A stretch of DNA of 64,000 bases from Rhizobium sp. Q54 (lineage in GTDB: Bacteria; Pseudomonadota; Alphaproteobacteria; UBA7879; VGCX01), in the NCBI GenBank assembly GCA_945870825.1, contig CAMBTM010000004.1, positions 2,594 through 66,593 on the forward strand, given 5' to 3'. Both the position numbers and the translations under genes were made by a program. The notes beneath the pieces were generated by a model. That model had not been told where the DNA came from. It did no database searches and saw nothing but the letters and a program-made list of their open reading frames with translations. This document shows, piece by piece, positions 1,900-29,715 of this stretch. Numbering within the stretch: the first letter of the stretch is position 1; every line of letters begins with the position of its first letter.

Positions 1900-1928
1900 T
1901 TGACAATCATTCTTCCACACATTAAGTT
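1900..1928 (+). promoter_or_regulatory. Candidate sigma70-like promoter (TTGACA ... TAAGTT) upstream of regulator gene
   Basis: Perfect -35 hexamer TTGACA at 1900-1905. The -10 element is weak and 15-17 nt downstream. Lies in the 82-bp gap before the ORF at 1955. Confidence 0.2.
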
Positions 1929-1954: not shown

Positions 1955-2545
1955 ATGCAACTTAAAATGGCGGCTTTTCAAGATACACGGGAACAGACGG
2001 AACAAAAAGTGATGGTTCATCTCTTGAGTGAGATCGACAAAAATCCTTCGTTTACTCAACGGCATCTGGCAAGCGAGCTTGGGATTGCTTTGGGGTTAAT
2101 GAACCATTATTTGAAGCGGTCTGTTACGAAAGGATGGCTTAGGGCTTCCCAGGTGTCTCCTCGCCGTATTACGTATTTTTTAACGCCTGAAGGATTTCTT
2201 GAAAAAGGCCGCATGGTGAAGGATTACCTTGCCCGTTCTATGACATTTTTCCGAGATGCTCGGTCCCAATGTACCGACATTTTTGACCGCTGTAAGACCA
2301 ACGGATGGCATCAGGTGGCCTTAGTCGGGGAGGGGGATCTTGCCGATATTGCCCGCCTTGTGGCACTCAGTGTTGGTGTTGAAGTTTTTGTGATGGATTC
2401 AAAGGCTGATTTTAAAGACGTTCAGGCTATCCTTGTGACGGATGTTCTTAATCCTCAGGGTGTTTATGATGCGTTGAGAAAGAAAAAAGATCTGCCACCG
2501 ATCATTTTGCTGCCATTGCTCCATATATCAACGAGGGCCTTATGA
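1955..2545 (+). CDS. Winged-helix transcriptional regulator with C-terminal Rossmann/CoA-binding-like domain
   Basis: N-terminal wHTH-like segment (PSFTQRHLASELGIALGLMNHYLKRSV). C-terminal part resembles the CoA-binding-like N-domains of polysaccharide glycosylphosphotransferases (HQVALVGEGDLADIARLV...). Its stop overlaps the next start. Confidence 0.5.
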   Translation: MQLKMAAFQDTREQTEQKVMVHLLSEIDKNPSFTQRHLASELGIALGLMNHYLKRSVTKGWLRASQVSPRRITYFLTPEGFLEKGRMVKDYLARSMTFFRDARSQCTDIFDRCKTNGWHQVALVGEGDLADIARLVALSVGVEVFVMDSKADFKDVQAILVTDVLNPQGVYDALRKKKDLPPIILLPLLHISTRAL

Positions 2546-3051
2546 GTGCGTTGACGTGGTCTGTTGTTTATACCCAAGCGTTAAAAGAGGGGGTGGCAGC
2601 TCAAAACCTGAAAGATCAAGGGTTTGAGGTTTATTTGCCTCGGTTTAAAAAGCTCCGTCGGCATGCCAGAAAAGTTGACGAGGTGTTGGCCCCCTTGTTT
2701 CCCCGCTATGTTTTTATTGGGATGGATCGGGAAATAGCCCAGTGGCGCAGCATCAAAGGGACGAGGGGTGTTTCCCATTTGTTGATGACCGATGACCGGC
2801 ATCCAGCCGTTGTGCCGAGTCTTATTATTGAATCTTTGAAGGCCCAAGAGGTCAGCGCAGGGGTTGTTCCCGTTGAAACGCTGATTGTTTTCCAAAAAGG
2901 TGAAAAGCTTCGGATTCTGGAGGGCGCGTTTAAGGACCATGTGGCGACCTTTGAAGGCCTTGATGATAAGGCACGGGTTGAACTTTTATTGACGTTTTTG
3001 GGTCGAGAGACAAAGATTGCCCTTCCCCATTATGGGGTGGAAGTCGCCTAA
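2542..3051 (+). CDS. NusG/RfaH-family transcription antitermination paralog (NGN + KOW domains)
   Basis: 169 aa, the size of a specialised NusG paralog. NGN-like N-domain (EVYLPRF...PLFPRYVFIG). C-terminal KOW motif GEKLRILEGAFKDHVATF. Sits at the head of a >29-kb same-strand locus. Confidence 0.75.
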   Translation: MSALTWSVVYTQALKEGVAAQNLKDQGFEVYLPRFKKLRRHARKVDEVLAPLFPRYVFIGMDREIAQWRSIKGTRGVSHLLMTDDRHPAVVPSLIIESLKAQEVSAGVVPVETLIVFQKGEKLRILEGAFKDHVATFEGLDDKARVELLLTFLGRETKIALPHYGVEVA

Positions 3052-3135
3052 AAATAGTTTTTTTATGCCCTTCCTTAGGGGGGGTGTTTGTTGATATAAG
3101 AATGAATCCAGTTTGGGAGGAATTTTCACCCAGAC

Positions 3136-3147
3136 TGCGGCAGCATG
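3136..3147 (+). promoter_or_regulatory. ops-like element (TGCGGCAGCATG vs E. coli ops GGCGGTAGCGTG) in operon leader
   Basis: Matches ops at 9 of 12 positions. Located in the non-coding leader between the NusG paralog and the first biosynthetic gene. Weak: the key T6 position is not conserved. Confidence 0.2.
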
Positions 3148-3168
3148 GGGAAAATTTAGGGATAGTTT

Positions 3169-6812: not shown

Positions 6813-8988
<2,176 letters not shown>

Positions 8989-11662: not shown

Positions 11663-12507
11663 TGAAAATAAAAATTGTTTTCTTAGGCAACCATACGGTA
11701 GGGGTTCAAGTATTGAAAACAATGCATGAACTGGGTTGTCTATCTGGAATTATTGCACACCCAGAAGATCCAGAAGATGGGGTAAGGTATTTATCTGTAT
11801 ACGAGTATGGAAAACAGCTTAACGTGCCGGTGATAAGGGCAACACCAAAAGATCCAGTCCTGAGAGAATTTATTAATAAAATTAAGCCGGATCTTATTTG
11901 GGTTACGGACTATAAATACTTACTTCCCTCTTCAGTATTTTTATTCCCTAGGTTGGGGGCTATCAACCTCCATCCCAGTCTTTTACCTTATTACAAAGGG
12001 CGTGCTTCTTTAAATTGGGCGCTTATTTATGGAGAAAAAAAAGTTGGATTAACAGCACATTTTATTGATGAAGGTGTTGATACTGGTGATATTATTAAGC
12101 AGGTGGAGTTACCACTTCATGAAGATGATTATATCGGAGATGTTCTTGATAAAATATATCCTTTATATAGTCAAATTACGCGAGAGGTCATAGAGATGTT
12201 TAGAGAGGGCGCGGTCCTTAGGCATAAACAGCTCGAAGACGGAGGATCAATCTATCCAGCTAGAACAGAGAAAGATGGCTTGATTGATTGCACATGGTCT
12301 GCACAAAAAGTGTTGAACTTTATTAAAGCCCTTTCAAAACCCTATCCAGGTGCTTTTGTGATAGACGGAGCCAATAAAATTATTGTTTGGAGAGCCGAAT
12401 TAGTATCAATCGAATTTGAATCCTTAGGGATTCATAGAGTGGGGGATGATATATATCTTCAGTGTGGGGACGGGGCTTTAAAAATAAAAGATTGTAAGAT
12501 GGTTTGA
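11662..12507 (+). CDS. Sugar N-formyltransferase (Fmt/ArnA-N/WlaRD family)
   Basis: Formyl-transferase catalytic motif HPSLLPYYKGRASLNWALIYGEKKVGLTAHFIDEGVDTGDI. 281 aa. Sits directly after pseI, where pseH would be expected. Confidence 0.7.
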   Translation: MKIKIVFLGNHTVGVQVLKTMHELGCLSGIIAHPEDPEDGVRYLSVYEYGKQLNVPVIRATPKDPVLREFINKIKPDLIWVTDYKYLLPSSVFLFPRLGAINLHPSLLPYYKGRASLNWALIYGEKKVGLTAHFIDEGVDTGDIIKQVELPLHEDDYIGDVLDKIYPLYSQITREVIEMFREGAVLRHKQLEDGGSIYPARTEKDGLIDCTWSAQKVLNFIKALSKPYPGAFVIDGANKIIVWRAELVSIEFESLGIHRVGDDIYLQCGDGALKIKDCKMV

Positions 12508-12525
12508 TAGGTAGGGAGAATAAAA

Positions 12526-13191
12526 ATGTTTAATGCCGTTTGGAATGAAAAATATGCCGCGGGTGATTCACTCAATAAGTATCCATGGGATAAAATTGTA
12601 AGCTTCATCTTTAAGTTTCGTCCTCGAAATAAAGAAAGACATGAAACTAAAGTTTTAGAACTAGGATTTGGGAGTGGCTGTAATTTATGGTTCTGTGCAC
12701 GAGAGGGTTTTGATTGTTATGGTATTGAGGGATCAGCAATTGGTGTTAAACATGCTCAGCAATGGTTCTCTAAGGAGAATTTGCAGGCTGATTTGACGCA
12801 AGGAATGTTTTATCCATTAAATTTTTCAGAAGAATTTTTTGATTTGATTATTGATAGAGGTTCTCTAACTTGCGTTAACTCTAAGGACAGCTATTTGTCG
12901 CTGCAAGAAATTTTCAGAACTTTAAAAACCGGGGGTTATTTTTGCTTTAATCCCTATTCGACTCGTCACACATCTTCTGTAGAAGGGACTTTGCTACCCA
13001 CAGGGTTGACTAAAATAAAATCGGGCACTCTAACAGGGGTAGGAGATATTAAATTTTATGATGAAAAAACAATTAGAGAACTTGTTGAAAAAGTAGGCTT
13101 CAAAATAAAAGAAATGCGCCACATAGAAGATCATTATTTTACCCCTTCTTATGGCACTCATGCAGAATGGTTTTTGGTTTTGGAGAAATAG
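12526..13191 (+). CDS. Class I SAM-dependent methyltransferase
   Basis: Motif I VLELGFGSGCN and post-I FDLIIDRGSL. Confidence 0.55.
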   Translation: MFNAVWNEKYAAGDSLNKYPWDKIVSFIFKFRPRNKERHETKVLELGFGSGCNLWFCAREGFDCYGIEGSAIGVKHAQQWFSKENLQADLTQGMFYPLNFSEEFFDLIIDRGSLTCVNSKDSYLSLQEIFRTLKTGGYFCFNPYSTRHTSSVEGTLLPTGLTKIKSGTLTGVGDIKFYDEKTIRELVEKVGFKIKEMRHIEDHYFTPSYGTHAEWFLVLEK

Positions 13192-13195
13192 GAGA

Positions 13196-13789
13196 ATGCA
13201 TAATAAAGATTATGTTACATTAAACAAATCTGTCTATTTAGAGTGCTTATCTAAGAATGGGGATAGTCACCTATCTCTTAATTGGGGGAGCAAAGACTCT
13301 CAAGACAAGCGGTTCAAAGCATTGATCGATGTTGCTCAAAATATTTTTGTATCGAATATATTAGATGTTGGTTGCGGGCTTGGACATTTTTTAGACTTTC
13401 TTTTGACAAAAGGGTTTCATGGAAATTATACAGGGAGTGATATTTTAGAAGAAATGATTGCAATGGCTAAAATACGTCATACCAATTCAATGTTTGAAGT
13501 AAAAAATCTCTCTAGTTACTCTTCCCATTCTTATGATTATGTTTTTATGAGTGGTATTTTTACGTTAGCCGATGAAAAAATCTTTAAGGAAATGGTGAGT
13601 ATGGCATTCGATGTGTGTGCAAAAGGCCTTGCCTTTAATTCTCTCAGCACATGGGCACCACAAAAAGAAGATAATGAATTTTATGCAGATCCCCTTAAGA
13701 CGTTAGAATTTTGTTCTAAATTAACGCCAAAAGTTGTTTTAAAACATGAATATTTGCCCCATGATTTTACAATTTATATGTATAAATAA
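13196..13789 (+). CDS. Class I SAM-dependent methyltransferase
   Basis: Motif I ILDVGCGLGHF. Start placed at the internal ATG just after the upstream stop; the ORF as called from 13151 would overlap by 41 nt. Confidence 0.55.
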   Translation: MHNKDYVTLNKSVYLECLSKNGDSHLSLNWGSKDSQDKRFKALIDVAQNIFVSNILDVGCGLGHFLDFLLTKGFHGNYTGSDILEEMIAMAKIRHTNSMFEVKNLSSYSSHSYDYVFMSGIFTLADEKIFKEMVSMAFDVCAKGLAFNSLSTWAPQKEDNEFYADPLKTLEFCSKLTPKVVLKHEYLPHDFTIYMYK

Positions 13790-14476
13790 ATGATCATATC
13801 AATTAATCAGCCAGCTTATTTGCCTTGGCTAGGTTACTTCAATAGAATCGTAAAAAGTGACCTGCATATTGTTTTAGATCATGTGCAGTTTGAGAAAAAT
13901 AGTTTTATAAATAGAAATAAAATACTTTTGGATGGAAAACCTTTGTGGTTGACATTGCCCATATTAACAAAAGGTCATTTCAATGATTTGAGAATCGAAG
14001 ATTTATTGATTGATTCTAAAATAAATTGGGAAAAAAAGCATCTTTCATCAATCATGCAGGCTTACTCAAAATCTTCACATTGGATCGAATTCAAGGATGA
14101 GTTAGAAATAATCTATTCTAAAAATACAGATTCTCTCAGCAATATTTTGGATGATTCTCTAAAATTTTTTATGAAGTATTTAAAGATAGAAACACCTATT
14201 GAGTATTCTTCAAAATACGATTTTCGTGCTAGAAAAAGTGATCTTGTTTTGGAGATTTGCCAGAGATTTCAAGCGCGTTATTATCTTTCTGGTCCTCTTG
14301 GACGAAATTATTTGGAACTCACTAAATTCCAAGATTGTGGTATTGAGATTTTATTTGATGATTATGTGCATCCTATTTATCCGCAAAAATCAGAAAACTT
14401 CATCCCCTACCTATCTACTTTAGATCTTATAGCTAATTGCGGAAAAGAATCATTGAGGGTTTTAACAAATGTCTAA
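13790..14476 (+). CDS. WbqC-family protein
   Basis: Characteristic WbqC N-terminus MIISINQPAYLPWLGYFNRI. Confidence 0.7.
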   Translation: MIISINQPAYLPWLGYFNRIVKSDLHIVLDHVQFEKNSFINRNKILLDGKPLWLTLPILTKGHFNDLRIEDLLIDSKINWEKKHLSSIMQAYSKSSHWIEFKDELEIIYSKNTDSLSNILDDSLKFFMKYLKIETPIEYSSKYDFRARKSDLVLEICQRFQARYYLSGPLGRNYLELTKFQDCGIEILFDDYVHPIYPQKSENFIPYLSTLDLIANCGKESLRVLTNV

Positions 14477-15143
14477 AAATATTCTTATTATTGCGGCGCA
14501 TCCAGATGATGAGGTCTTGGGATGTGGTGCTACAATGGCACGGCATACCCATCATGGTGACAATGTGGGGGTTGTTTTTGTTTCAGACGGTGTTGGGGCA
14601 AGAAATAGTGATTTTGAAAACAATTTAAAAAAGAGGAAAGAATCTGCCCTAAAGGCTTTGAAGATTTTAGGGGCAGATTGCTTAAGTTTTCTAGATTTCC
14701 CAGACAATCGGTTGGATACGATTCCATTTTTGGACATTGTGCAGCCCTTAGAAGATATCATCAACGCGTTTAATCCATCCATAGTGTATACGCATCATTA
14801 TGGAGATCTCAATATTGATCATGCCATTGTCCATCGTGCAATTATGACGGCCTGTAGACCTCTTCCTCATACACCTATAGAGGAAATTTATTCCTATGAA
14901 GTTGTTTCGTCTACTGAATGGGGTTTGCAAGGAGCTTATTTTCAACCTAACCGTTTTGTAGATGTTAGTGATTTTTTTTCAAAGAAGATTGAGGCGATTC
15001 AAGCTTATCATGAAGAGATGCGGCTTTTTCCTCATAGCCGTTCTATAGAACATATTGACGCCCTTGCGGTTCACAGAGGCGCAACTGTTGGACTAAAAAA
15101 AGCTGAAGCTTTTTTTCTAGTACGGGCAATCCATGGTAGATAA
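14469..15143 (+). CDS. PIG-L/LmbE-family N-deacetylase
   Basis: N-terminal ILIIAAHPDDEVLGCGATMA zinc-binding motif. Confidence 0.75.
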   Translation: MSKNILIIAAHPDDEVLGCGATMARHTHHGDNVGVVFVSDGVGARNSDFENNLKKRKESALKALKILGADCLSFLDFPDNRLDTIPFLDIVQPLEDIINAFNPSIVYTHHYGDLNIDHAIVHRAIMTACRPLPHTPIEEIYSYEVVSSTEWGLQGAYFQPNRFVDVSDFFSKKIEAIQAYHEEMRLFPHSRSIEHIDALAVHRGATVGLKKAEAFFLVRAIHGR

Positions 15144-16971
15144 GTATAAAAAATTCCAAGGAGTTGCAATTGTTCAATATCCTGAGCAAGTGGGTATTTA
15201 TAAAAATTATTTTTCCCGCGAAGGGATTCCTCAAGACAGCATCTTTTGGGTGGCCACTAGTGATCCCGCATTTTTCTTTTTAGAAAAAGAAAGAATAGCT
15301 TTTTCAAAAATAACAGATTTCTATGATTATAATATTTTTTATAAAAATGTTTTTAATGAATCATATAAAAATTTAGACAAGGCACTAAGATGTATAGATA
15401 AAGAAATATTTACATATTATCCTACATTAGAAAAATATGGAATTTCTTTTGCTGAGGGGTCTCTCTATTATCTAAGGATGTGGTGTGATAGTTTTGAAAC
15501 TGATCTTTATGAAATGCAATCTCTTAAAAATATCATTTCTGACAGCTCTAAAGTATACTATGTCCCATCTTCAAAGCAGGGTTTTTTTTATGGATTATAT
15601 CCCATGCATATCAACCGATCACTGGAAGAAGTGCTCGGGCTAGTCTTTGAAAAAGATAGACTGCATGCTTTAGACTCCTTTGATCCCAAGACAAGCATTG
15701 TAAGTTTTTCAAAAGATTTTGAAGAAAAAGAGATAAATGACTTTTTTAAAAATAGAATTGATACTTTTGGTCATATAGAAAGACTTAAAAAGAGATTAGA
15801 GTCCCTGCTTCAAGATTTATGGGGAGAGAAAAAATATCTGGCCATGGGGATCGATAAAGACTGGATGTCAGATTCTGGATCTTTTGACTTTTTTGAAAAC
15901 TATATTGATGAAATTCAAAATTTGCCATCATCTATAAAAGTAGATCATGATAAATATATAAAAAATATAAGCCATTTTTTTGTTATTAGTGGAATCAATT
16001 ATTATGATTGCATGAAGCATATAATTCATAAAACACTAGAAAAATTCTTAATTTCTTCCTTTAAAACTATAGATTTCTATCATAATGATAAAAATAAAGA
16101 AAAATGGACGGCTCTTTTTTCTATCGGTTTTGTTAGTTTTGAATCTCAATCATTAGCAAAACTTTTTAAGTTTTATGGAAAAAAAGTTATTTGTACTCAT
16201 CACGGCTCTTTGGCAATTCTAGAAGACAAAATCAATCATTACCTGGAATATCCTTATATCACAGACTATATTGTTTGGGGGGAAGGTGTAAAAAACCAAT
16301 TACAAACAGAATATGATTTCAGCAATATACGCATACATACTTTGGGGTCTTTATCTCTAGCGTGTTTGAAAAATACGATAGAGAAGGTAAAAGAAAAAAA
16401 AATATCAAAGTCACAGTTTAAAAAACCCATTATTATTTTCTTGCTTCAGAGTATAAACGATAAAGTAAGGGTAACGCTTGATCATCCCCCAGGCATCATT
16501 GATTTTATCAATCAAAGAGATTTGATCACCTCTATCTTAGATACTCATCTTGATTTTGAGCTGATTATAAAAGGACACCCTTCTACAGCGGGTTATCTTC
16601 AGTCTTCCTTGAGGTTTTTATTTAAAAAGGATAGTAGAGTGCATTATACAAGCACACTCCCATTGAAAAATTTTCTAGCAGACAGTATGTATTTTATAAC
16701 AGACAGGCCTTCTACATCCTTGTTTCAAGCAATGATCGCTGGATTGAAGTGTTATTGTTTGATAAATTCAGAATTTTATACAAGCAATTTTATTGAATGT
16801 TTAAAAGAAGATGGCATCCTGTTTAAAAATAATCAAGCACTTGTAAAAGCACTGCATAATGACTTAGCCACTAAGAGGAAAGGGGAAAATCTTGAAACCT
16901 CTGTTACAATAAAAAAATATTGTACTATTTATAATGGTCCTATTGAGGAGGTGCTTAGTTTTGAAAAATAA
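15133..16971 (+). CDS. Hypothetical protein (612 aa), possible polysaccharide glycosyltransferase/polymerising enzyme
   Basis: Long soluble ORF inside the locus with no motif I can assign. Its size and context fit a Maf/KpsC/TagF-like transferase. Confidence 0.35.
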   Translation: MVDKYKKFQGVAIVQYPEQVGIYKNYFSREGIPQDSIFWVATSDPAFFFLEKERIAFSKITDFYDYNIFYKNVFNESYKNLDKALRCIDKEIFTYYPTLEKYGISFAEGSLYYLRMWCDSFETDLYEMQSLKNIISDSSKVYYVPSSKQGFFYGLYPMHINRSLEEVLGLVFEKDRLHALDSFDPKTSIVSFSKDFEEKEINDFFKNRIDTFGHIERLKKRLESLLQDLWGEKKYLAMGIDKDWMSDSGSFDFFENYIDEIQNLPSSIKVDHDKYIKNISHFFVISGINYYDCMKHIIHKTLEKFLISSFKTIDFYHNDKNKEKWTALFSIGFVSFESQSLAKLFKFYGKKVICTHHGSLAILEDKINHYLEYPYITDYIVWGEGVKNQLQTEYDFSNIRIHTLGSLSLACLKNTIEKVKEKKISKSQFKKPIIIFLLQSINDKVRVTLDHPPGIIDFINQRDLITSILDTHLDFELIIKGHPSTAGYLQSSLRFLFKKDSRVHYTSTLPLKNFLADSMYFITDRPSTSLFQAMIAGLKCYCLINSEFYTSNFIECLKEDGILFKNNQALVKALHNDLATKRKGENLETSVTIKKYCTIYNGPIEEVLSFEK

Positions 16972-17677
16972 TAAGATTTTAGCCGCATGGCAGCAACTTC
17001 CATCACCCCAAGTCACCATCGCCATGGCGAGTTTGGGGTTTGATTGGGTGGTGGTGGATCTTGAGCATACGTCAATTACAACACAAGAAGCAGAAGCTAT
17101 TTTTATGGCTGCAGAACGTTGCAATGCTAAGCCTTTTGCAAGACTTCCTTCTGCAGAGCCCTATCTTGCACGACGTCTTCTAGATGCGGGTGCTGTGGGG
17201 TTGCTTATTCCCGTTGTTGAATCAAAAGAGTCGTTTAATGATTTTGCGCGTCATTGCTTTTTTCCTCCCAAAGGACGACGGGGATTAGGGTTAGTGCGTG
17301 CCAATGGATGGGGAGATCATTTGAAAGAGTATTTCGATGACTTTAAACCTCTTCTTATCGCTCAAATTGAGACAAAATTGGCTGCTGATAATATTCATAG
17401 CATTCTTTCTTCTGAGTTTTTAGACGGCATTATGGTGGGGCCCTATGATCTTTCCGCGAGCCTTGGAAAACCAAGACAATTTGATGATCCAGACTTTAAA
17501 AAATTGTGCCAGTTCATTGTGGAGGAAGCGAGAAAGAAGAAGAAACTCGTTGGATTTCATCAGGTTGAACCAAATCTTGAGGCTTTGAAATTACGTATCC
17601 AAGAAGGATATGACTTTGTTGCCTATGGGACCGATATTGTTGCTTTAAGGCATGCGTTAACAGGAGTGAAATCATGA
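16961..17677 (+). CDS. HpcH/HpaI-family class II pyruvate aldolase
   Basis: GFDWVVVDLEHTSI and MVGPYDLSASLG motifs. Start set at the TTG preceded by GAGGAGG; the ATG at 16934 overlaps the upstream gene by 38 nt. Confidence 0.6.
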   Translation: MKNNKILAAWQQLPSPQVTIAMASLGFDWVVVDLEHTSITTQEAEAIFMAAERCNAKPFARLPSAEPYLARRLLDAGAVGLLIPVVESKESFNDFARHCFFPPKGRRGLGLVRANGWGDHLKEYFDDFKPLLIAQIETKLAADNIHSILSSEFLDGIMVGPYDLSASLGKPRQFDDPDFKKLCQFIVEEARKKKKLVGFHQVEPNLEALKLRIQEGYDFVAYGTDIVALRHALTGVKS

Positions 17678-18432
17678 AAAAAATATGTGTTATTCCAGCA
17701 AGGATGGGTTCCACACGGTTTCCAGGGAAACCCTTGGCAACAGCCCTTGGTATTCCTGTGATTGTTCATGTAGCAAAGCGATGTGCCTTGTCAGGGCATA
17801 TTGATCATAGTGTGGTTGCAACCTGTGATTTAGAAATTAAGAACGTTTGTGAAGAAAATGGAATCGCCGTTATCATGACGAGTGATCAGCACGAACGTTG
17901 CACGGATAGGGTTAGTGAGGCTATTGAAAAATGTGGATGGGAATTTAAGGATGATGACTTTGTCTTGATGGTTCAAGGGGATGAGATTTTGGTAACCCCA
18001 GCCATGTTAGATTCCGTGATCGATGAGTATGAACGCACGCGGTCGCCGGTGGTTAATCTTCTCTCCACAATATATGCAGCGCAAGATCATGAGGACCCTA
18101 ATGTTGTGAAAGTGGTTTCTGCTCCTGATCAAAGAGCTCTCTATTTCTCAAGAGCGCCTATTCCTTCAAGATATAGAGATAGTCAGGCTCCCTCTTATCA
18201 GCAGACGGGGGTTATCGGATTTTCTAGAAAATTTTTAAGAGAATTTAGTGAGTTACCACAAACACCTTTAGAAAAAATAGAATCCATTGATATGCTCAGA
18301 GTCTTAGAACATGGTCTTCCCTTGAGGGTTGTCTATACGGACAAAGAAACTGTTGCTGTTGATGTGCCTTATGATCTGGAGCGTGCTGAAAAAATCTTGG
18401 CAACAGATCCCCTTGTTAAAAACTATGCGTAA
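17674..18432 (+). CDS. KdsB-like cytidylyltransferase (3-deoxy-ulosonate/CMP-sugar synthetase family)
   Basis: MKKICVIPARMGSTRFPGKPLA...IVHV closely parallels the KdsB N-terminus. 252 aa. Confidence 0.75.
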   Translation: MKKICVIPARMGSTRFPGKPLATALGIPVIVHVAKRCALSGHIDHSVVATCDLEIKNVCEENGIAVIMTSDQHERCTDRVSEAIEKCGWEFKDDDFVLMVQGDEILVTPAMLDSVIDEYERTRSPVVNLLSTIYAAQDHEDPNVVKVVSAPDQRALYFSRAPIPSRYRDSQAPSYQQTGVIGFSRKFLREFSELPQTPLEKIESIDMLRVLEHGLPLRVVYTDKETVAVDVPYDLERAEKILATDPLVKNYA

Positions 18433-19384
18433 GAAAATTCTTATCTCGAATATAGGATTCGGCGATGCCTCTTCTCAAGCAATAGGAGTCCTTGAAAACA
18501 AGGCATTAGTGATTGAAAACAAAGATAGACGCCGATTCACGGAAGAAGATTTCATAAAAACTATCCAAGATGTGGAAATCCTTATTGCAGGGACGGAAAA
18601 GATTACAACGTCTGTTCTTGAAAATGCTCCTTGCCTAAAGCTTATTGCACGGGTGGGGGTAGGGGTGGACAATATCGATCTAGATGCTGCACGAGAAAAG
18701 AAAATAAGCATTTGCTATACCCCAGATGCGCCTTCTGAATCTGTTCCTGAATTTACCCTAGCGCTTATCTTCAATCTTTTGAAGGGTATTGGGGAGTCGG
18801 ATCGAAAAATGCATCAAGCCAAGTGGCATCGACCCATGGGGAGGATGCTTTCTTCTTGTATTGTTGGAATCGTTGGCGCTGGAAAAATAGGATCCAAGGT
18901 TGCCCAATTGATTCATTCACTATCTTCTTCAACAACAGTTTTATTTTATGATCCCTATGTTGAGGCCATCCCCTCTGCAGAAAAATGTGATTTGGAGGAT
19001 CTTTTGAAGAGGTCGGATGTGGTGTCACTGCATCTTTCTCTGAATGCTGGGACAAAAGGACTTATCAATGAAGATCTTTTGAGTAAAATGAAACAAGGAA
19101 GTTATTTGATCAATACATCGCGTGGGAGTGTGATTGATGAAGGGGCTCTTTATACGGCCCTTCAAACCAAACATTTAGCAGGAGCAGCACTCGATGTCTT
19201 TAATGTTGAGCCTTATAATGGGGCGTTGACAGAACTGGACAACTGCCTCTTAACCTCTCATATTGGTTCTATGACGCATGAGGGAAGGGCGTTGATGGAA
19301 AACCAGGTAGCTGAGGATGTGGTTCGTTATTTGGATAATCAGTCGTTACTCAGGTCTTTGAAAGGATTTGATTTTGCAAGGTAA
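18425..19384 (+). CDS. D-isomer-specific 2-hydroxyacid dehydrogenase (NAD-binding)
   Basis: GIVGAGKIGSKVAQL NAD fold and the catalytic region SRGSVIDEGAL...HIGSMTHE. Start placed at the internal ATG with an 8-nt overlap. Confidence 0.7.
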   Translation: MRKKILISNIGFGDASSQAIGVLENKALVIENKDRRRFTEEDFIKTIQDVEILIAGTEKITTSVLENAPCLKLIARVGVGVDNIDLDAAREKKISICYTPDAPSESVPEFTLALIFNLLKGIGESDRKMHQAKWHRPMGRMLSSCIVGIVGAGKIGSKVAQLIHSLSSSTTVLFYDPYVEAIPSAEKCDLEDLLKRSDVVSLHLSLNAGTKGLINEDLLSKMKQGSYLINTSRGSVIDEGALYTALQTKHLAGAALDVFNVEPYNGALTELDNCLLTSHIGSMTHEGRALMENQVAEDVVRYLDNQSLLRSLKGFDFAR

Positions 19385-19385
19385 A

Positions 19386-20276
19386 ATGAAAAAAGCGGTA
19401 GTCTTTGGTGGATCTGGGTTTGTGGGAAGTCATGTAGCGGATGCTTTAACAAACGCTGGCATAGAAACCACAATTTTTGACCTACACCCTTCTGACTTTA
19501 TTAATGATAAGCAGATTTTTATTCAAGGAAGCATTTTAGATCAAGACTTGGTCCAAAAGACCATTGAAGGTAAAGATTATGTGTATCACTTAGCTGGACA
19601 AGCTGATATTGGGATTGGATTTGAGACACCAAAGGATACATTGCATTTAAATATCCAAGGCACCATTAATATTCTTGAAGCATGTCGCAAGGCAAGCATT
19701 GAACGGTTTGTGTTTGCCTCTACAGTTTATGTTTATTCTGATGTGGGTGGTTTTTATAGAGCCAGCAAGCAAGCCTGTGAAATTATCATCGAAGAGTATC
19801 AAAAGAATTTTGGTATTGATTATACAATTCTGCGATATGGGTCTTTGTATGGTCCGCGTGCGGGGGAAAAAAACTTTATTTATCGTATTATTCAACAGGC
19901 TATTCTTGATAAAAAAATCAAGGTTGGCTATGAAAACGATGAAAAAAGGGATTTTATCCATATCTATGACGCTGCCCGTATGAGTGTTGATATTCTCAAA
20001 GAAGACTATAAAAACGTGCATGTGATGCTGACCGGGTATCAACATATTAGTCGGGGTGAGTTAATTAATATTGTTACTGAAATGCTGGGCGGTGGAATTG
20101 AGATTCAAATTACGAAACCTGAACTTGATAAGGCTCATGGGCATTATAAATTAACGCCTTATGTGTTTAAACCAAAAATTTCACGAAAACTTGTAAGCTC
20201 TGAATACTTAGAGTTTGGACAAGGGATTTTGAGCTGTATGGAAGAGATTTATGAAAAGCACGTTAAACAAGACTAG
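19386..20276 (+). CDS. NAD-dependent epimerase/dehydratase (SDR family)
   Basis: VVFGGSGFVGSHV motif and YRASKQACE (YxxxK). Confidence 0.7.
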   Translation: MKKAVVFGGSGFVGSHVADALTNAGIETTIFDLHPSDFINDKQIFIQGSILDQDLVQKTIEGKDYVYHLAGQADIGIGFETPKDTLHLNIQGTINILEACRKASIERFVFASTVYVYSDVGGFYRASKQACEIIIEEYQKNFGIDYTILRYGSLYGPRAGEKNFIYRIIQQAILDKKIKVGYENDEKRDFIHIYDAARMSVDILKEDYKNVHVMLTGYQHISRGELINIVTEMLGGGIEIQITKPELDKAHGHYKLTPYVFKPKISRKLVSSEYLEFGQGILSCMEEIYEKHVKQD

Positions 20277-20895
20277 ATCATTTTTTCTTGATTTTGATGG
20301 TGTTGTCGTTGAATCAGCTGATATTAAAACAGAAGCTTTTTATGATCTCTATCTTCCTTATGGTAAAGAAGTTGCAATCCTAGCAAAAGACTACCATCTT
20401 AATCATCAAGGTGTTAGTCGTTCTAAGAAATTTGATGCCATGCATGAACTTTTTCTGGGGAAAAAGTGTTCTGATGATGAAAAAAAGATTTTAACCAAAA
20501 AATTCTCAGAACTTGTTTTTGATAAAATTCTTCTATGCCCTTTGGTAGATGGAATTATTGGATTTCTCAAACAACAGAAAGAGAAAAATATCCCTGTTTT
20601 TTTACTCTCTGCCACTCCCCATGATGAACTCCTTAATATTTGTGAAAAGAGAGGGCTTTCTCTGTTTTTTAAGGAAATGTATGGGGCCCCTTTTGAAAAA
20701 AGTGAAAGAGGCACGTTTATCATGCAGCAGCATCACTTTGCCAAAAATGACATTATTTTTATTGGAGATAGTATCAGTGATTTTAATGCGGCTTCTGCCA
20801 TAGGGGTTAATTTTATAGGACGTGTCAAAGAGGGAGATAAAAACCCTTTTGATTCCAAAGTTAAAGTGATCAAGGATTTCAAAGCACTATTATGA
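20251..20895 (+). CDS. HAD-superfamily hydrolase/phosphatase
   Basis: Motif I FFLDFDGVVVES and motif IV FIGDSISD. Confidence 0.6.
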   Translation: MKSTLNKTRSFFLDFDGVVVESADIKTEAFYDLYLPYGKEVAILAKDYHLNHQGVSRSKKFDAMHELFLGKKCSDDEKKILTKKFSELVFDKILLCPLVDGIIGFLKQQKEKNIPVFLLSATPHDELLNICEKRGLSLFFKEMYGAPFEKSERGTFIMQQHHFAKNDIIFIGDSISDFNAASAIGVNFIGRVKEGDKNPFDSKVKVIKDFKALL

Positions 20896-21503
20896 AAGAA
20901 CACTTATTTGAATCCTTAGAAGAAGCTGGATTGTTTTTAAAAGAAAGCATTCAAAATGATCTACAGCGGCAGATAAATATATATGATCAGGCAGTTCTCA
21001 TTCTTCCGGGTGGTAATAACATTCGGTCATTCTTTCCTTATTTAATTGATCTTGATGTTGATTGGAAAAGAGTTGCCATTGGATTGAGTGATGAACGATG
21101 TGTTTCTCTTGAGGATTCGATGAGCAACGAACGACAGTTGCGGGAATGTTTTTTATCCCATCTTCCAAAATATAATTACCATCCACTGAATCAAGACTTC
21201 GTCCATAAAATTCAAGAGATTGCTCCTATTACACTCTTAAGCATGGGGATTGATGGTCATGTTGCTTCACTTTTTTCTGAGGAATCATCAGAGTGGGGCG
21301 CAATGGGTGTGAGTCTTTATAAGACGAAAAAACAAAACCCAAACCGCGTCGGGCTTTCGAAAGAGGCCTTGCTTCTATCCGATAAAATTTATATCTTAGC
21401 AAGAGGTCCGGAGCGTTTGGAAAGACTTAATGAGATAAAAGAGGCGTCATTTTATTTGGGTGATGTTTATGAGAAGGCTGTGATGATTAAGGTGTTAAAA
21501 TGA
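20892..21503 (+). CDS. 6-phosphogluconolactonase/glucosamine-6-P isomerase-family protein
   Basis: LSMGIDGHVASLF signature of the Pgl/NagB sugar-phosphate isomerase fold. Confidence 0.5.
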   Translation: MKEHLFESLEEAGLFLKESIQNDLQRQINIYDQAVLILPGGNNIRSFFPYLIDLDVDWKRVAIGLSDERCVSLEDSMSNERQLRECFLSHLPKYNYHPLNQDFVHKIQEIAPITLLSMGIDGHVASLFSEESSEWGAMGVSLYKTKKQNPNRVGLSKEALLLSDKIYILARGPERLERLNEIKEASFYLGDVYEKAVMIKVLK

Positions 21504-22336
21504 TAAAGAAAATTATTAAAGATTTACTTGCGAATACTGCTCAAAAATTAGTTAGGTTTTGTGTGAATAAGGGGTGCATGACACAAGATGATGTCATTGA
21601 AAAATTAAGTGAGTATGTTGATGTTCCAACAAAACATGGAGTGATAAAGTTTTTTTGTCCTGGCCAAATTCCTATTTGGAGAGCAAATACATTTTTTGAT
21701 TTAGAGCCTGAAACCTTAGCATGGGTGGATTCTTTTGAAACGGATACTGTTTTTTTCGATATTGGTGCTAATGTGGGTTTATACAGCCTTTATGCTGGAA
21801 TGAAGGGGCATGAAGTCTTGTCTTTTGAGCCCTATAGTGCAAATCAATATATTTTAAACAAGAATATATATATTAATAAACTTGATCATAGAATTACAGC
21901 GTTATCTGCTGCAATCTCAGATAAGTTTCAATTTTCTAAATTTTACATGCAAAATATGCAGTTTGGTTCGGCAGAAAATACAACAGGAAAAGCTGTGGAC
22001 TGGAAAGAAGAAAAATTTATTCCAAAATTTCAACAAGGGATTATGGAATATTCTTTAGATCAGCTTTTAAATATTCAAAAGATGCCGTTCCCAAATTATA
22101 TAAAGATAGATGTTGATGGGGTTGAAGATCAAATATTGCTGGGTGCTCGTGAAACTTTAAAGGATATTAGAGTGAAGCAAGTTCTTATTGAGCTGGATGA
22201 AAAACACTCAATGCACGACTGGTGTGTAAAATTTATGGGGGAAAGTGGTTTTGTATTAGATGTTAAAGAACAAAGTGATGTATTTGCACAAGGTACATAC
22301 AAAAATATGTATAACTACATATTTTCAAGAAAATAA
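21500..22336 (+). CDS. FkbM-family methyltransferase
   Basis: FFDIGANVGLYSLYAGMKGHEVLSFEP motif. Confidence 0.7.
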   Translation: MIKKIIKDLLANTAQKLVRFCVNKGCMTQDDVIEKLSEYVDVPTKHGVIKFFCPGQIPIWRANTFFDLEPETLAWVDSFETDTVFFDIGANVGLYSLYAGMKGHEVLSFEPYSANQYILNKNIYINKLDHRITALSAAISDKFQFSKFYMQNMQFGSAENTTGKAVDWKEEKFIPKFQQGIMEYSLDQLLNIQKMPFPNYIKIDVDGVEDQILLGARETLKDIRVKQVLIELDEKHSMHDWCVKFMGESGFVLDVKEQSDVFAQGTYKNMYNYIFSRK

Positions 22337-22348
22337 TAAACCATCTTT

Positions 22349-24139
22349 ATGATTATTTCTTTTAGAGATTTATATCCTTTCAAGGAATTTACGTCATCTT
22401 TTTACTTCATAGGGTTCAACACAGAAAATCTGCTCTCCCTTGAAAAAAAAGGGATTTCCGTTTCTTTCTTAGCAAAAGAAAGAATGACAATTTTAAATGA
22501 GATTAGAGACGATATTATCAACTTTGACAAAGGGATTGCTGATGTATCAGATCCTTTGTGGCTTGCGAGTGATCTCGCTGAAAACAATATCTGTCTTGAA
22601 AATTTTAACCTCTATATCCTTAATACGCTGTCTATTATTAGAAATGAACGATTGCAAAAAAAGGGAGTGGTTTTTATTTGTGATGATGATGAACAAGTCT
22701 ATCTTTACAAATCTCTTTTAAAGGGAAATGGTCTTAAAATAACTGGACGTGTTAATTACTTTAAACTTCTAAGAAGGCTCATGGGGTGTCTCACTCAAAA
22801 AGTTCTAGGCCTTTATCAGAGTGTGTGTAAAGTAGTGATTCTGCGCAGCTTAAGGCGTGGTTACCGCGTCAAACTACAGACAGAAGATTTAGAAAAAACA
22901 GATATTCTTTGTATGAATTGGGTTGCTGAACAATCATTTAGAGATGGAAATCTTTTTCTAAAAGATCGGTATTTCGGTGATTTGCTCTCGAAATTAAAGC
23001 AAAAAAAATTAAAAGTCGCCGTTATGGGTAAGGCTCTTGATTTTGTCTGTTCTTTCAAAGAAATTGCAAGGTCTGCAATCAATGAGAAAAGCCAGGTCTA
23101 TTTTCTACAAGATTTCTTAAAAATATCCGATATTTTTAAGATATTTTTTCAGTCATTTGGATTTTTGAAATATTTTAATCATCCATTCGTTGTGAAGGAC
23201 GTTAATTTTTCTCACCTATGGCAATGGTTCTGCTTAAAAGATGCCTTAAAGCCCCGGATTCCTTCAGCTTTAGAAACATTTCATGCAGCGCGCAGTATTT
23301 GCAAAACTATTAAGAACCCTGATATAAAATTAATTTACCCTTATGAGAATCAAGCGTGGGAAAAAGTTTTAGCCCTAGCCTTTGCACAGAAATTCTCTTC
23401 GAATCATCTTTATGCGTATCAGCATTTTCCTGTGTCGAAGGATTATCTAACAATTTATCCATCGAATGCGTATAGAGAAAGAAAGATTAACCCAAAGATT
23501 TTATTAAGCGATTCCTTTTTTGGCAATTATTTGAGAGAAAAAGGATGTGGAGACACTACCCTGCTAGGGAATTTTAGATTTGAAAATGTACTGAAAAATG
23601 ATCAACAATGTTCTTCTGTAAAAAAAGAGGACATTCTCTGCGCTTGTTCCATTCAATTTAATGATTCTTTGGAACTTATATCAAGATCTATAAAGCTGAT
23701 TCAAAAGTTTGATCCGACTTTTCAACAAAAGATCACATTAACAGTCAATTTTCATCCCCTTATGCGAGATATTGAAAAGAAAAAAATAAGAGAGCTTTTT
23801 TCTGATGCTAGGATTAATATCCACTGGTCTCCATTAAGTGCAGACGAACTTTTAAAGAGTACACGCATAGTTTTTTATAACTCAAATTCTATTTGTTTGA
23901 ATGCAGCAGCAAATGGTATTCCAGCAGTGTTTATTAGTTCAGACTTACAAATAGATCTTGATAGAATTCCAGATATATCTATAAAAGATGATGAGCTAGG
24001 GATAAAAAAAATAGAATCTATTTTGAGCAATGAAGATCACTATAGGATGGAATCAAACCTATTTAGAGGCTATTTTGAATCATATTTTGTGCCACCGCAG
24101 CACTCAATCTTGAATGAAATTTTTAAACGAGGGCAATAA
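22349..24139 (+). CDS. Hypothetical protein (596 aa), possible capsule/teichoic-like polysaccharide transferase
   Basis: Long soluble ORF. C-terminal region (IHWSPLSADELLKSTRIVFYNSNSICLNAAANGIPAVFISS) is reminiscent of GT-B/TagF-like C-domains. Confidence 0.35.
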   Translation: MIISFRDLYPFKEFTSSFYFIGFNTENLLSLEKKGISVSFLAKERMTILNEIRDDIINFDKGIADVSDPLWLASDLAENNICLENFNLYILNTLSIIRNERLQKKGVVFICDDDEQVYLYKSLLKGNGLKITGRVNYFKLLRRLMGCLTQKVLGLYQSVCKVVILRSLRRGYRVKLQTEDLEKTDILCMNWVAEQSFRDGNLFLKDRYFGDLLSKLKQKKLKVAVMGKALDFVCSFKEIARSAINEKSQVYFLQDFLKISDIFKIFFQSFGFLKYFNHPFVVKDVNFSHLWQWFCLKDALKPRIPSALETFHAARSICKTIKNPDIKLIYPYENQAWEKVLALAFAQKFSSNHLYAYQHFPVSKDYLTIYPSNAYRERKINPKILLSDSFFGNYLREKGCGDTTLLGNFRFENVLKNDQQCSSVKKEDILCACSIQFNDSLELISRSIKLIQKFDPTFQQKITLTVNFHPLMRDIEKKKIRELFSDARINIHWSPLSADELLKSTRIVFYNSNSICLNAAANGIPAVFISSDLQIDLDRIPDISIKDDELGIKKIESILSNEDHYRMESNLFRGYFESYFVPPQHSILNEIFKRGQ

Positions 24140-24141
24140 AA

Positions 24142-25215
24142 ATGTTTTTAAAGAAAAAAAGTTATTTAAGAGCTATACAGCGTATTAGAATTCCAGAAAC
24201 ACGTGATTTAGTCCATGGATTAAGACTAGATCGCAATGAGAGGGTTGCCGATTGGCCTGACAACTTTATGGCAGAGGTTCTTTCTTCAAAACATGCCTCT
24301 TTCTTTAGTACCTATCCCGATCTTTCAGGGCTTTATAAGAAATTATCTTCCCATTTAAATGTTAAACAGTCCCAAGTTCTTGTATCATCTGGTATTGATG
24401 GTGTTATTAAAACTCTCTTTGAAATACTGGTGAATCCAGGTGAAAAAATTGGCGTATTTGCACCAACTTACGCCATGTACGACGTTTATGCAAAGTTATT
24501 TCAATCTGAGATGGTTCATGTGGGTTATAAGGAAAATTATGAGCCAAATTGGGATTCTTTTGAGGCATTTTTAAAGCAAGATCCCATTATTCTGTTCTTA
24601 CCTAATCCAAATCAACCAATAGAATCCTGCTTTTCTTTGGAAGAATTAAGACTTATTGCAAAGAAATGCTTGGACATTGGATGTCTATTTGTTGTGGATG
24701 AAGCCTATCACTATTTTGGTGCAGAATCTGCACTTCCTTTGATAAATGAATTTGAAAATGTTGTTGTTATGAGGACTTTTTCAAAAGCCTTTGGTATTCC
24801 CTCTGCACGTCTTGGATATATGGTCTCAACAGAAGAGAATATGGAACTCCTTTCTAAAACACGTCTTGCTCACGAAGCAAACGCATTAAGTGCTGCTATG
24901 GCTGAGTACCTTTTAGATAATTTTGATATTGTAAAGGATTATGCCAATCAAATTAATCAAGCACGGGCTTATGTTAAGAAGGAGCTATTAGAATTGGGTG
25001 TTCATGCAAGGGGAGAGAAGGGAAACTATCTTTTGATTCCACTTGCATCCAGTTTGCAAACAAAAAATTGCGTAGCATCCTTGAGAGAGCAAAAAATTTA
25101 TGTGAAAGGCCCATGGAACGCTCCCTGGGATAATTGCATCACTATAACGCTAGGGCCTAAAGACCTTATGGAACGTTTTATAGAGTCCATAAAAGAATTT
25201 ATGAGGCACGCATGA
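24142..25215 (+). CDS. Class I/II PLP-dependent aminotransferase (HisC/CobD-like)
   Basis: FSKAFGIPSARLGY lysine motif typical of histidinol-phosphate aminotransferase-like enzymes. Confidence 0.65.
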   Translation: MFLKKKSYLRAIQRIRIPETRDLVHGLRLDRNERVADWPDNFMAEVLSSKHASFFSTYPDLSGLYKKLSSHLNVKQSQVLVSSGIDGVIKTLFEILVNPGEKIGVFAPTYAMYDVYAKLFQSEMVHVGYKENYEPNWDSFEAFLKQDPIILFLPNPNQPIESCFSLEELRLIAKKCLDIGCLFVVDEAYHYFGAESALPLINEFENVVVMRTFSKAFGIPSARLGYMVSTEENMELLSKTRLAHEANALSAAMAEYLLDNFDIVKDYANQINQARAYVKKELLELGVHARGEKGNYLLIPLASSLQTKNCVASLREQKIYVKGPWNAPWDNCITITLGPKDLMERFIESIKEFMRHA

Positions 25216-26150
25216 AAATTCTTGTTACAGGTGGAATGGGGTATATAGGAAGTAACCTTATCAAACGGTTAGAGAAAGATAATCATGCAATAACAATTCT
25301 TGATAATCTTTCCACAAGTCTTAAGGGGGGCCAAACTCAGCATGAATTAGTTTGTGCGGATATTACAAACTATGAATTACTTAAAGCATCTTTTGAGGGA
25401 AGAGTATTTGATGTTGTTTTGCATCTCGCTGCGCAATCTTCAGGCCCAGCTTCTTTTAAAGATCCAGAGCTTGATTTAAGAATTAATATTCTTGGAACCT
25501 TAAATATTATTCGGTTATGTGATCATCTTAAAATACCAAGAATTCTGTTTGCGTCCTCATTTACTGTTTACGGTGATAATCTTACACATGAAATGCTTAG
25601 TGAATCTTTACCCTGTGAACCAAAATCTCTTTATGGGGTTGGTAAATTAACGGGAGAACAGTATCTTAAAGTGTACGCCGAAAAGCTTGGTATCTCTTGG
25701 AATGCTCTACGCATGTTCAACGTTTATGGACCAGGGCAAGATTTATCTAGAAAAGATCAAGGGATTGTCAGCATTTTTCTGGGGTATGTGAGAGAAGGGG
25801 ACTATATTCCACTACAAGGAAAAGTAGAGAGATTTAGGGACTTAGTTTATATCGATGATGTGGTATCAGCGTGGGTTTTATGTCTCGAAAAAAATATTCC
25901 TAACCAAATTTTTAATGTTGGATCGGGATCTAAAACAACTATCAAAGAGTTGATCGAGTCAATCGCTGATTTACATAAAAAAAACGTTACCATTGAGGTT
26001 GTTGGATCCACTCCTGGCGATATTATGGGGTGCTATGCAGACATCTCTAAGTCTCGAGATCTCTTAGGATATAATCCTCAGTACCAACTAAAATCTGGAT
26101 TAGCTCATTTCAAAAATTGGGCGGATCAGACCTTTGGAGAAGTAGTATGA
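25212..26150 (+). CDS. NAD-dependent sugar epimerase/dehydratase (GalE-like)
   Basis: MKILVTGGMGYIGSNL and YGVGKLTGE (YxxxK). Confidence 0.75.
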   Translation: MKILVTGGMGYIGSNLIKRLEKDNHAITILDNLSTSLKGGQTQHELVCADITNYELLKASFEGRVFDVVLHLAAQSSGPASFKDPELDLRINILGTLNIIRLCDHLKIPRILFASSFTVYGDNLTHEMLSESLPCEPKSLYGVGKLTGEQYLKVYAEKLGISWNALRMFNVYGPGQDLSRKDQGIVSIFLGYVREGDYIPLQGKVERFRDLVYIDDVVSAWVLCLEKNIPNQIFNVGSGSKTTIKELIESIADLHKKNVTIEVVGSTPGDIMGCYADISKSRDLLGYNPQYQLKSGLAHFKNWADQTFGEVV

Positions 26151-29706: not shown

Positions 29707-29715
29707 AATTTCCCC

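Follow-up and report, generated by a model that had tools for sequence, protein, structure and literature searches.

Escherichia coli RfaH, with its ops element, is the standard textbook example both of an elongation factor recruited to a specific sequence and of a protein that switches folds. Another specialised NusG paralog, LoaP, binds a hairpin in leader RNA. In E. coli, the ops bases G4, G5, A7 and G8 are indispensable for recruitment of RfaH while C3 and T6 contribute about 3-fold; T6 enters a pocket made up of H20, R23, Q24 and R73, T72 also contacts ops, and G12 is required for the pause at U11 (Zuber et al., 2018, PMC5995543). According to a survey of the family, recruitment is known for E. 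coli RfaH only, and ops recognition is argued to have arisen late (Wang et al., 2020, mBio, PMC7593976). Here we describe a stretch of 64 kb from Rhizobium sp. Q54 (contig CAMBTM010000004.1), referred to as the window, in which a gene for a winged helix-turn-helix (wHTH) regulator and a gene for an RfaH-like NusG paralog are followed by a leader hairpin, an ops-like element and a long series of glycan genes. We put the probability at roughly 0.7 that these parts make up a conserved alphaproteobacterial cassette, combining wHTH-gated initiation with RfaH-like elongation control of a long surface glycan operon. The features are, in order (nt, nucleotides):

1900-1928, plus strand: promoter-like site of the regulator pair (TTGACA at 1900-1905, a 17-nt spacer, TAAGTT at 1923-1928)
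1931-1940, strandless: candidate wHTH operator, the perfect palindrome GTTCATGAAC, 2 nt 3' of the -10 hexamer and over the expected transcription start
1967-2545, plus strand: wHTH regulator gene, 192 amino acids (196 from the alternative start at 1955)
2542-3051, plus strand: RfaH-like NusG paralog gene, 169 amino acids, NGN domain and KOW-like C-terminal domain (CTD)
3065-3087, plus strand: weak terminator-like hairpin and then TGTTTGTTG (-12.7 kcal/mol, z -2.0)
3092-3100, plus strand: extended -10-like TGaTATAAG, possible internal promoter by consensus match
3109-3137, plus strand: leader hairpin, CAGUUUGGG (3109-3117) paired with CCCAGACUG (3129-3137)
3136-3147, plus strand: ops-like element TGCGGCAGCATG, within the 117-nt spacer
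3169-31745, plus strand: presumed target, about 30 tightly packed glycan genes, all in one direction, over about 28.6 kb

The two regulatory genes correspond to the plus-strand open reading frames 1955-2545 (196 amino acids) and 2542-3051 (169 amino acids), which overlap by 4 nt; the spacer behind the second measures 117 nt and the next gene begins at 3169.

The hairpin-ops element

An earlier note on this DNA, made from the letters alone, had drawn attention to a match with E. coli ops at 9 of 12 positions. The match is present and conserved in the family: TGCGGCAGCATG is identical to the E. coli element GGCGGTAGCGTG at positions 2-5, 7-9, 11 and 12, and has C rather than T at position 6. By itself it is not significant, with 13 ops matches of up to 3 mismatches observed in the window and 14.0 expected by chance, and its meaning came only from comparative data. 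These were drawn from 79 genomes fetched by family profile, which gave 82 non-redundant loci for the element count. The consensus tTCACCCGGAc-TGCGG(T/C)AGC-nTG, in which CACCC and GCGG.AGC are invariant, stood 46-102 nt 3' of the stop codon of the rfaH-like gene in 67 of the 82 loci. The full conserved element is 24 nt and thus longer than ops. A 19-nt part of it, TCACCCAGACTGCGGCAGC (3126-3144), is the sole copy in the window, where none is expected, and within 965 kb of loci the element was found almost nowhere else; the exceptions are L005, where it follows a second rfaH-like gene, and L020 and L068, which have distal copies. The reverse comparison gave the same picture: when the DNA element alone was scanned in public metagenomes, an rfaH-like gene ended 44-189 nt 5' of it in 57 of 80 contigs, and several of the remaining contigs are too short to show such a gene. 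The closest relatives, the metagenomic contigs L082-L087 with 80-82% identical proteins, retain TTCACCCRGACTGCGGCAGCAT at the same place, while the surrounding spacer has diverged. The earlier note had named conservation of the leader motif in related genomes among the tests of its idea, and this conservation turned out to be strong. All this points to a genuine leader motif, real rather than fortuitous.

Throughout most alphaproteobacteria the core TGCGGTAGCnTG equals E. coli ops except at position 1 and at the variable position 10, and the clade of the window carries C at position 6. The four bases essential in E. coli (G4, G5, A7 and G8) are all present in the window, as are C3 and G12; T6 is not. 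Translation of the first gene does not account for the conserved nTG at positions 10-12: of 121 such codons, only 23 are followed by an open frame of 100 codons or more, so that a role as start codon was ruled out and the conservation of T11 and G12 is not a start-codon effect. The frames opened by these codons are mostly short, with a median of 14 codons; in the window, the ATG opens a 4-codon mini-frame at 3145-3159 (MGKI, stop), located before the Shine-Dalgarno-like AGGGA of the first operon gene.

The 3' arm of the leader hairpin in the window extends into ops positions 1-2, and the predicted fold has an energy of -13.9 kcal/mol (z -3.6, reached by 0 of 200 shuffles). Across the family the 3' arm is the conserved TCACCCGGA(C), the 5' arm resembles TCCGGGTGA and is often lengthened to GCAGTC..., and the loop spans about 2-8 nt. 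Because a MAFFT alignment of the leaders left the 5' arm unaligned, it was replaced by a covariance model based on 8 loci with the same geometry, which detects the hairpin in 59 loci, including the window. Paired cells amount to 88% of the resulting alignment as compared with 31-51% for slid-partner controls, the latter being the fairer comparison, as the alignment was fitted to the structure and includes 5 minus-strand palindrome hits, so that the pair counts themselves lean towards structure. The covariation score was above that of all 500 shuffles, and 5 of the 10 stem pairs show double-sided changes, for instance between G-C and C-G in the outermost pair and among C-G, U-A and U.G in more internal ones. 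U.G wobbles are numerous on the sense strand; together with the variable loop length, these mark the hairpin as one of the transcript and not a site for a protein on double-stranded DNA, and a DNA operator at this place was thereby ruled out. Rfam searches gave no match of the leader in the window to JUMPstart (RF01707) or any other family at the gathering threshold, and none for the leaders of the window and L039 at E<=10, JUMPstart included.

With the stem taken to stop immediately before ops position 1, about 12 nt separate the end of the hairpin from the U11 equivalent (3146) 3' of it. A distance of about 12 nt between hairpin and pause is the geometry of hairpin-stabilised (his-type) pauses, and pause stabilisation is our preferred reading of what the hairpin would do.

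Matches to the family profile occur in at least 565 species of the genome collection, and the lineage of the cassette is phylogenetically broad, reaching from relatives of protist endosymbionts to Bradyrhizobium. The earlier note had thought a gene of this kind unusual in an alphaproteobacterium, which does not agree with these numbers nor with the 18% of rfaH genes that Alphaproteobacteria hold according to the survey (Wang et al., 2020, PMC7593976). The cassette is not universal in the protein family, however, since four loci with rfaH-like genes of 50-55% identity (L009, L013, L014 and L016; Rickettsia-like, Legionella and Fluviispira) have neither a wHTH neighbour nor a hairpin-ops element within 200 nt. 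In one metagenome-assembled genome (L005, 6001-8440) the module is duplicated in tandem, with a second rfaH-like gene at 7941-8351, a partial wHTH remnant at 7568-7831 and a separate hairpin-ops copy about 60 nt 3' of the second rfaH-like gene.

The RfaH-like paralog and its putative ops-reading pocket

The 169-residue protein contains an NGN domain (Pfam NusG, E 3.8e-18). Among the NusG-family models of NCBIfam its best match is RfaH (TIGR01955), aligned end to end over residues 6-164 at 115 bits, although below the cut-off of 144.5. Lower, and likewise below their cut-offs, are a second RfaH model (NF006534; 81 bits, cut-off 124), UpxY (NF033644; 66 bits, cut-off 100), housekeeping NusG (TIGR00922; 63 bits, cut-off 135.7) and LoaP (NF033641; 44.6 bits, cut-off 125), the last being the weakest match to a NusG-paralog family. 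Its neighbours are the wHTH gene and glycan genes, not secE-nusG-rplK. The best solved relative is E. coli RfaH (3e-15, as compared with 2e-8 for NusG), and an AlphaFold2 model of the NGN domain superposes on that of E. coli RfaH with a root-mean-square deviation of 1.8-2.7 Å at 30% identity. The PLFPRY motif, which corresponds to the RNA polymerase-binding PLFPNY of E. coli, is invariant in 150 family members. These results bear out the description in the earlier note of an NGN and KOW protein that is a specialised paralog and not the housekeeping NusG, as well as, for the NGN domain, the structural likeness to RfaH that it had proposed to look for. Its identity as a dedicated RfaH-like NusG paralog is thus supported by sequence comparison.

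The CTD, made up of the last 59 residues, is 44% identical to the RfaH CTD over 39 residues and 33% identical to the NusG KOW domain over 55, and appears to resemble the two about equally. In the AlphaFold2 model this part has low confidence (predicted local distance difference test, pLDDT, 35-58) and a mixture of helix and strand. A mapping of residues to E. coli RfaH, covering the same 150 family members, gave the following picture:

Q24, T72 and R138: conserved in the window protein (R138 as R145), invariant in the family
I93 and F130 (autoinhibition): I96 and F137 in the window, conserved in the family
K10 (ops contact): Q12 in the window, Q or H in the family
H20 (ops contact): N22 in the window, H or N in the family, H in most
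R23 (ops contact): D25 in the window, R in most of the family
R73 (ops contact): R75 in the window, V, I or F in most of the family
E48 (autoinhibition): A50 in the window, A, R or K in the family

R138 is the salt-bridge partner of E48 in E. coli RfaH. With regard to the pocket, each clade seems to retain a different half of the residues that read ops. The base at ops position 6 has its strongest association with the columns at E. coli positions 73 and 23, both of which line the T6 pocket. C6 accompanies 13 of 18 proteins of the R73 type as compared with 2 of 132 others; seen from the DNA, 13 of the 15 C6 loci have R at position 73, with D, E, Q or A at position 23, and in T6 loci, position 73 is V, I, F or L and position 23 is R (105 of 135). 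This pattern would fit a direct reading of position 6 by the protein.

The wHTH regulator, its candidate operator and the glycan genes

The wHTH gene lies immediately 5' of the rfaH-like gene in 72 of the 79 genomes. Gene callers and about 440 homologs place its start at ATG 1967, giving a protein of 192 residues with the N-terminus MAAFQD, and this conserved start is more likely than the one at 1955. The winged helix is of MarR type (Pfam HTH_24, 1.9e-5). MarR_EPS (NCBIfam TIGR04176) covers residues 17-101 only and scores 59 bits, below its cut-off of 88. An AlphaFold2 model (pLDDT 85.6) consists of the wHTH, a long helix and a small C-domain with the order beta-alpha-beta-beta-alpha-beta, in which an LVGxGDLADIA turn is almost invariant among homologs. 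The C-domain has no match to a Pfam family and no sequence match in the PDB, and Foldseek found MarR proteins that match the N-terminal part only, along with weak matches to wHTH plus Rossmann methyltransferases. For the C-domain, no more than a small Rossmann-like alpha/beta fold with a GxGDLA turn is predicted. Of the earlier suggestion of a wHTH protein with a CoA-binding or Rossmann-like C-domain, the wHTH and, as a prediction, the Rossmann-like fold hold up; a Rex or CoA-binding identity had no support from sequence or fold searches and was set aside.

The palindrome GTTCATGAAC occurs once in the window. In 71 of 75 loci, either it or GTTCA-N5-TGAAC was found in the 220 nt that precede the wHTH start, and 126 of the 137 palindrome occurrences in 0.9 Mb fall into such 220-nt intervals. 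The half-site spacing depends on the clade, with GTTCA|TGAAC (N0) in the Holosporales-like clade of the window and GTTCA-N5-TGAAC elsewhere, a half-turn change between wHTH proteins that are 35-70% identical. Outside the clade of the window the N5 form is usually present in two copies, 22-28 nt apart. Operator copies overlap the -35/-10 spacer, the -10 element or the start site, as in cTTGACGTTCAnnnnnTGAAC, the spacer position being found in most loci. The promoter-like site at 1900-1928 is identical base for base in the close relatives L082, L086 and L087, and in distant loci TTGAC -35 elements abut the operator. Thus, the palindrome is probably the operator of the wHTH protein.

Hairpin-ops copies that do not adjoin an rfaH gene provide a further comparison. 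In eight such loci (L020, L068, L104, L110, L115, L152, L153 and L159) an operator-bearing promoter is located 50-180 nt 5' of the element. As the operator-promoter is shared by these unlinked copies, operator, promoter, hairpin-ops element and the two genes belong to one system, and, judged from this arrangement, the putatively operator-controlled promoter is one that feeds ops-containing transcripts. What is observed is the anatomy and homology of the parts and the fact that all four are strongly conserved and located together. The earlier note had likened the wHTH protein to UpxZ; the palindrome in the promoter of its own gene and before the unlinked copies points instead to a DNA-binding regulator of initiation and not to an inhibitor of NusG paralogs.

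How the leader itself is transcribed may differ between loci. The terminator-like hairpin of the window (3065-3087) has only loose hairpin counterparts in L082 and L085, and TGnTATAAG is kept in the same two relatives, which are 80-82% identical. An internal promoter at 3092-3100 may thus exist, in which case transcription of the operon would begin a few bases 5' of the leader hairpin, with the hairpin at the 5' end of the RNA. In many distant loci the rfaH-like gene and the element are too close together to accommodate a promoter, and read-through from the wHTH promoter is therefore more likely there.

The genes at 3169-31745 include those for a PseB-like dehydratase and a DegT aminotransferase (a nonulosonic-acid set of PseB/PseC/NeuB type), NeuB, two cytidylyltransferases, a formyltransferase, WbqC, PIG-L, several methyltransferases, epimerases, GT2 and GT4 proteins and an ABC exporter, and their product is a glycan containing nonulosonic acid. 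In 10 of 10 diverse loci the first genes 3' of the hairpin-ops element are likewise glycan genes. From 12 to 30 kb, over the distal two thirds of the cluster, the G+C content falls to 33-37%, as compared with 41-47% in the flanks. The low G+C content of 12000-30000 suggests horizontal acquisition, and on AT-rich DNA of this kind Rho or silencing would act.

Directly 5' of the cassette and on the same strand, 121-1872 encodes a Wzy_C membrane protein resembling O-antigen ligases and polymerases. Since the close relative L082 has a different and divergent upstream neighbour, the boundary of the cassette is the wHTH promoter. The other end of the locus is marked by housekeeping genes on the minus strand (34502-38851), for an RNase R/II-type protein with RNB and S1 domains and for topoisomerase I. 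Beyond these, 39166-41865 and 42068-43702 on the plus strand encode two paralogous BspA-type leucine-rich-repeat proteins of 899 and 544 amino acids. They are built from tandem units of 75 nt (25 amino acids), and share segments of about 180-300 nt within and between the two genes, for the most part with 77-95% identity. Proteins of this type are typical of host-associated or endosymbiotic bacteria.

Proposed mechanism and comparison with known systems

From these data we infer the binding partners, the sign of regulation by the wHTH protein, the role of the hairpin and antitermination, and propose the following model. The wHTH protein would bind the GTTCA(N0/N5)TGAAC palindrome over its own core promoter and so gate initiation, most likely as a ligand-released autorepressor that senses its ligand through the small alpha/beta C-domain. 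Transcription of the promoter-proximal genes would supply the RfaH-like paralog. In the operon leader, polymerase would then meet the RNA hairpin followed by the ops-like sequence, which fits the consensus pause (G2 ... T11 G12), and the pause would expose the non-template ops DNA. The RfaH-like NGN domain would recognise ops and lock onto polymerase, and the locked factor would exclude NusG/Rho-dependent termination and suppress pausing over about 28 kb of low-GC genes.

Several points weigh against this model. All that is known here of the family comes from sequences, and the paralog of the window stays below the NCBIfam cut-off for RfaH. Two of the four side chains that contact ops in E. 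coli are changed (K10 to Q and R23 to D), and H20 is replaced by N as well. E48 is not conserved and the CTD is modelled at a pLDDT of 35-58, which makes autoinhibition and fold switching in the style of RfaH no more than hypothetical here. At position 6 the window has C, while the change T6A cuts recruitment of E. coli RfaH about 3-fold (PMC5995543). Clade structure confounds the association between position 6 and the pocket, and several unrelated columns reach scores close to those of the pocket. Lastly, the wHTH protein is connected to the palindrome through position and sequence, and in the window a terminator-like hairpin separates the rfaH-like gene from ops, the internal promoter behind it being a consensus match only.

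The best surviving alternative concerns the sign of the first step, namely that the operator-bearing promoters are activated, or relieved of silencing, by the wHTH protein and not subject to autorepression. The sign is not readable from sequence, and several loci do have one operator copy 5' of the -35 element, as would suit an activator. However, the palindrome of the window, which covers the expected start 2 nt after the -10 hexamer, and the copy between -35 and -10 in most loci occupy the classic repressor positions for MarR-type proteins, and we consider activation unlikely, if by no means far-fetched.

Less probable is recruitment through RNA as in LoaP, with the paralog reading the leader hairpin (or the hairpin and its tail) and the ops likeness of the tail reflecting a shared pause consensus. 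The covarying hairpin with its sense-strand wobbles would agree with such a mode, as would an element that at 24 nt exceeds ops, the K10 and R23 equivalents that are unlike those of E. coli, and the appearance of PDB 8f5g, a 'NusG-RNA complex', among the fold matches of the paralog. Yet the invariant G4, G5, A7 and G8 are exactly the bases that RfaH contacts, and they are dispensable for pausing in E. coli (PMC5995543); moreover, the base at position 6 tracks pocket residues, and among the NusG-paralog families LoaP gives the weakest match. We regard this explanation as distinctly improbable.

Slightly more improbable still would be that the paralog acts in elongation generally and without regard to sequence, the 24-nt element serving either as a site for the wHTH protein or another factor, or as a 5' element for mRNA stability or translation. 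The lack of conservation of E48 would suit this explanation, in that autoinhibition, and hence dependence on ops, may be absent, and transcripts may begin directly with the hairpin. On the other side, the wHTH protein has a far better and different candidate operator, the loop length of about 2-8 nt and the U.G wobbles argue against a site on double-stranded DNA, and an identity of 8 nt with ops in a family of RfaH homologs would need coincidence. That the 12-mer of the window is itself a chance match, as the 13 matches against 14 expected would allow, is refuted by position-specific conservation in at least 67 loci and 57 metagenomic contigs and by the unique 19-nt element with none expected, and we give it practically no weight.

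An elaboration of our model, which we put forward as tentative and do not expect to hold in full, is that the signal is bipartite. The RNA hairpin would hold polymerase at the ops pause or be read by the factor, an NGN pocket with residues other than those of E. coli would read non-template ops (R23-type in most alphaproteobacteria, R73-type together with C6 in the clade of the window), and the C-domain of the wHTH protein would be a new small-molecule sensor. If this were true, the use of ops would predate the K10 and R73 residues and the trans-acting lifestyle, and the ancestral RfaH would have been cis-encoded and wHTH-gated, which would revise the proposal of late ops recognition made in the survey (Wang et al., 2020, PMC7593976). 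The wHTH sensor would, in that case, couple the state of glycan precursors or the redox state to expression of the operon.

The cassette provides a second lineage in which a recruitment signal is readable directly from genomes. The ops core has stayed the same while half of the residues that read it are different, and a naturally occurring change of T6 to C6 goes together with another pocket, a natural experiment that offers testable hypotheses on the evolution of ops recognition. Relative to the E. coli system, the additions are the RNA hairpin and a dedicated regulator of initiation with a defined candidate operator. Together they would make a compact and portable two-level switch for expressing very long glycan operons, and the operator and the hairpin-ops element supply annotation rules for alphaproteobacterial O-antigen and capsule loci.

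With respect to published work, the survey records an RfaH cluster associated with an HTH regulator, and its cluster CL4 is probably the same gene pair as the cassette, given there without the cis elements ops, hairpin and operator (Wang et al., 2020, PMC7593976). In the open-access literature we found no description of an alphaproteobacterial ops, hairpin or operator, the 2020 survey being the sole RfaH/ops match for alphaproteobacterial genera.

Among described systems, UpxY and UpxZ of Bacteroides are similar in that a NusG paralog stands at the head of the polysaccharide locus it controls, beside a second small regulatory gene. UpxZ, however, does not bind DNA and inhibits non-cognate UpxY proteins, whereas the partner in the cassette is a wHTH protein with its own candidate operator. 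LoaP of Firmicutes, also a NusG paralog, is linked in cis to its target, whose leader likewise contains a small conserved hairpin, but the relation in sequence is weak (45 bits, cut-off 125), and the hairpin of the cassette is followed by a bona fide ops core. MarR_EPS (TIGR04176) is the nearest named family for the wHTH part and is likewise tied to exopolysaccharide loci; its members are single-domain proteins of about 105 residues that lack the alpha/beta C-domain of about 80 residues, and the cassette protein scores below its cut-off. The distance from the hairpin to the U11 equivalent is similar to that of his-type hairpin-stabilised pauses, in contrast to the E. coli ops pause, which is not hairpin dependent. 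JUMPstart (RF01707) is a gammaproteobacterial leader that contains ops, and its model does not match the leaders of the window and L039.

The closest counterpart is RfaH-ops of E. coli and Salmonella, and we take the cassette to be a real and conserved version of it that is encoded in cis, gated by a wHTH protein and lengthened by a hairpin. In both systems a homologous protein with the NGN fold goes with long glycan operons of low G+C content whose 5' leaders carry the ops core GCGGTAGC-nTG. The equivalents of Q24, T72, I93, F130 and R138 are conserved in the cassette protein. It differs in the C6 of the window clade, in the changed equivalents of K10, R23 and E48, in a CTD that is equally NusG-like and in falling short of the NCBIfam cut-off. 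In summary, the cassette is not a categorically new mechanism; with the gene pair already catalogued, it is the cis-regulatory anatomy and the integrated model that appear to be new.

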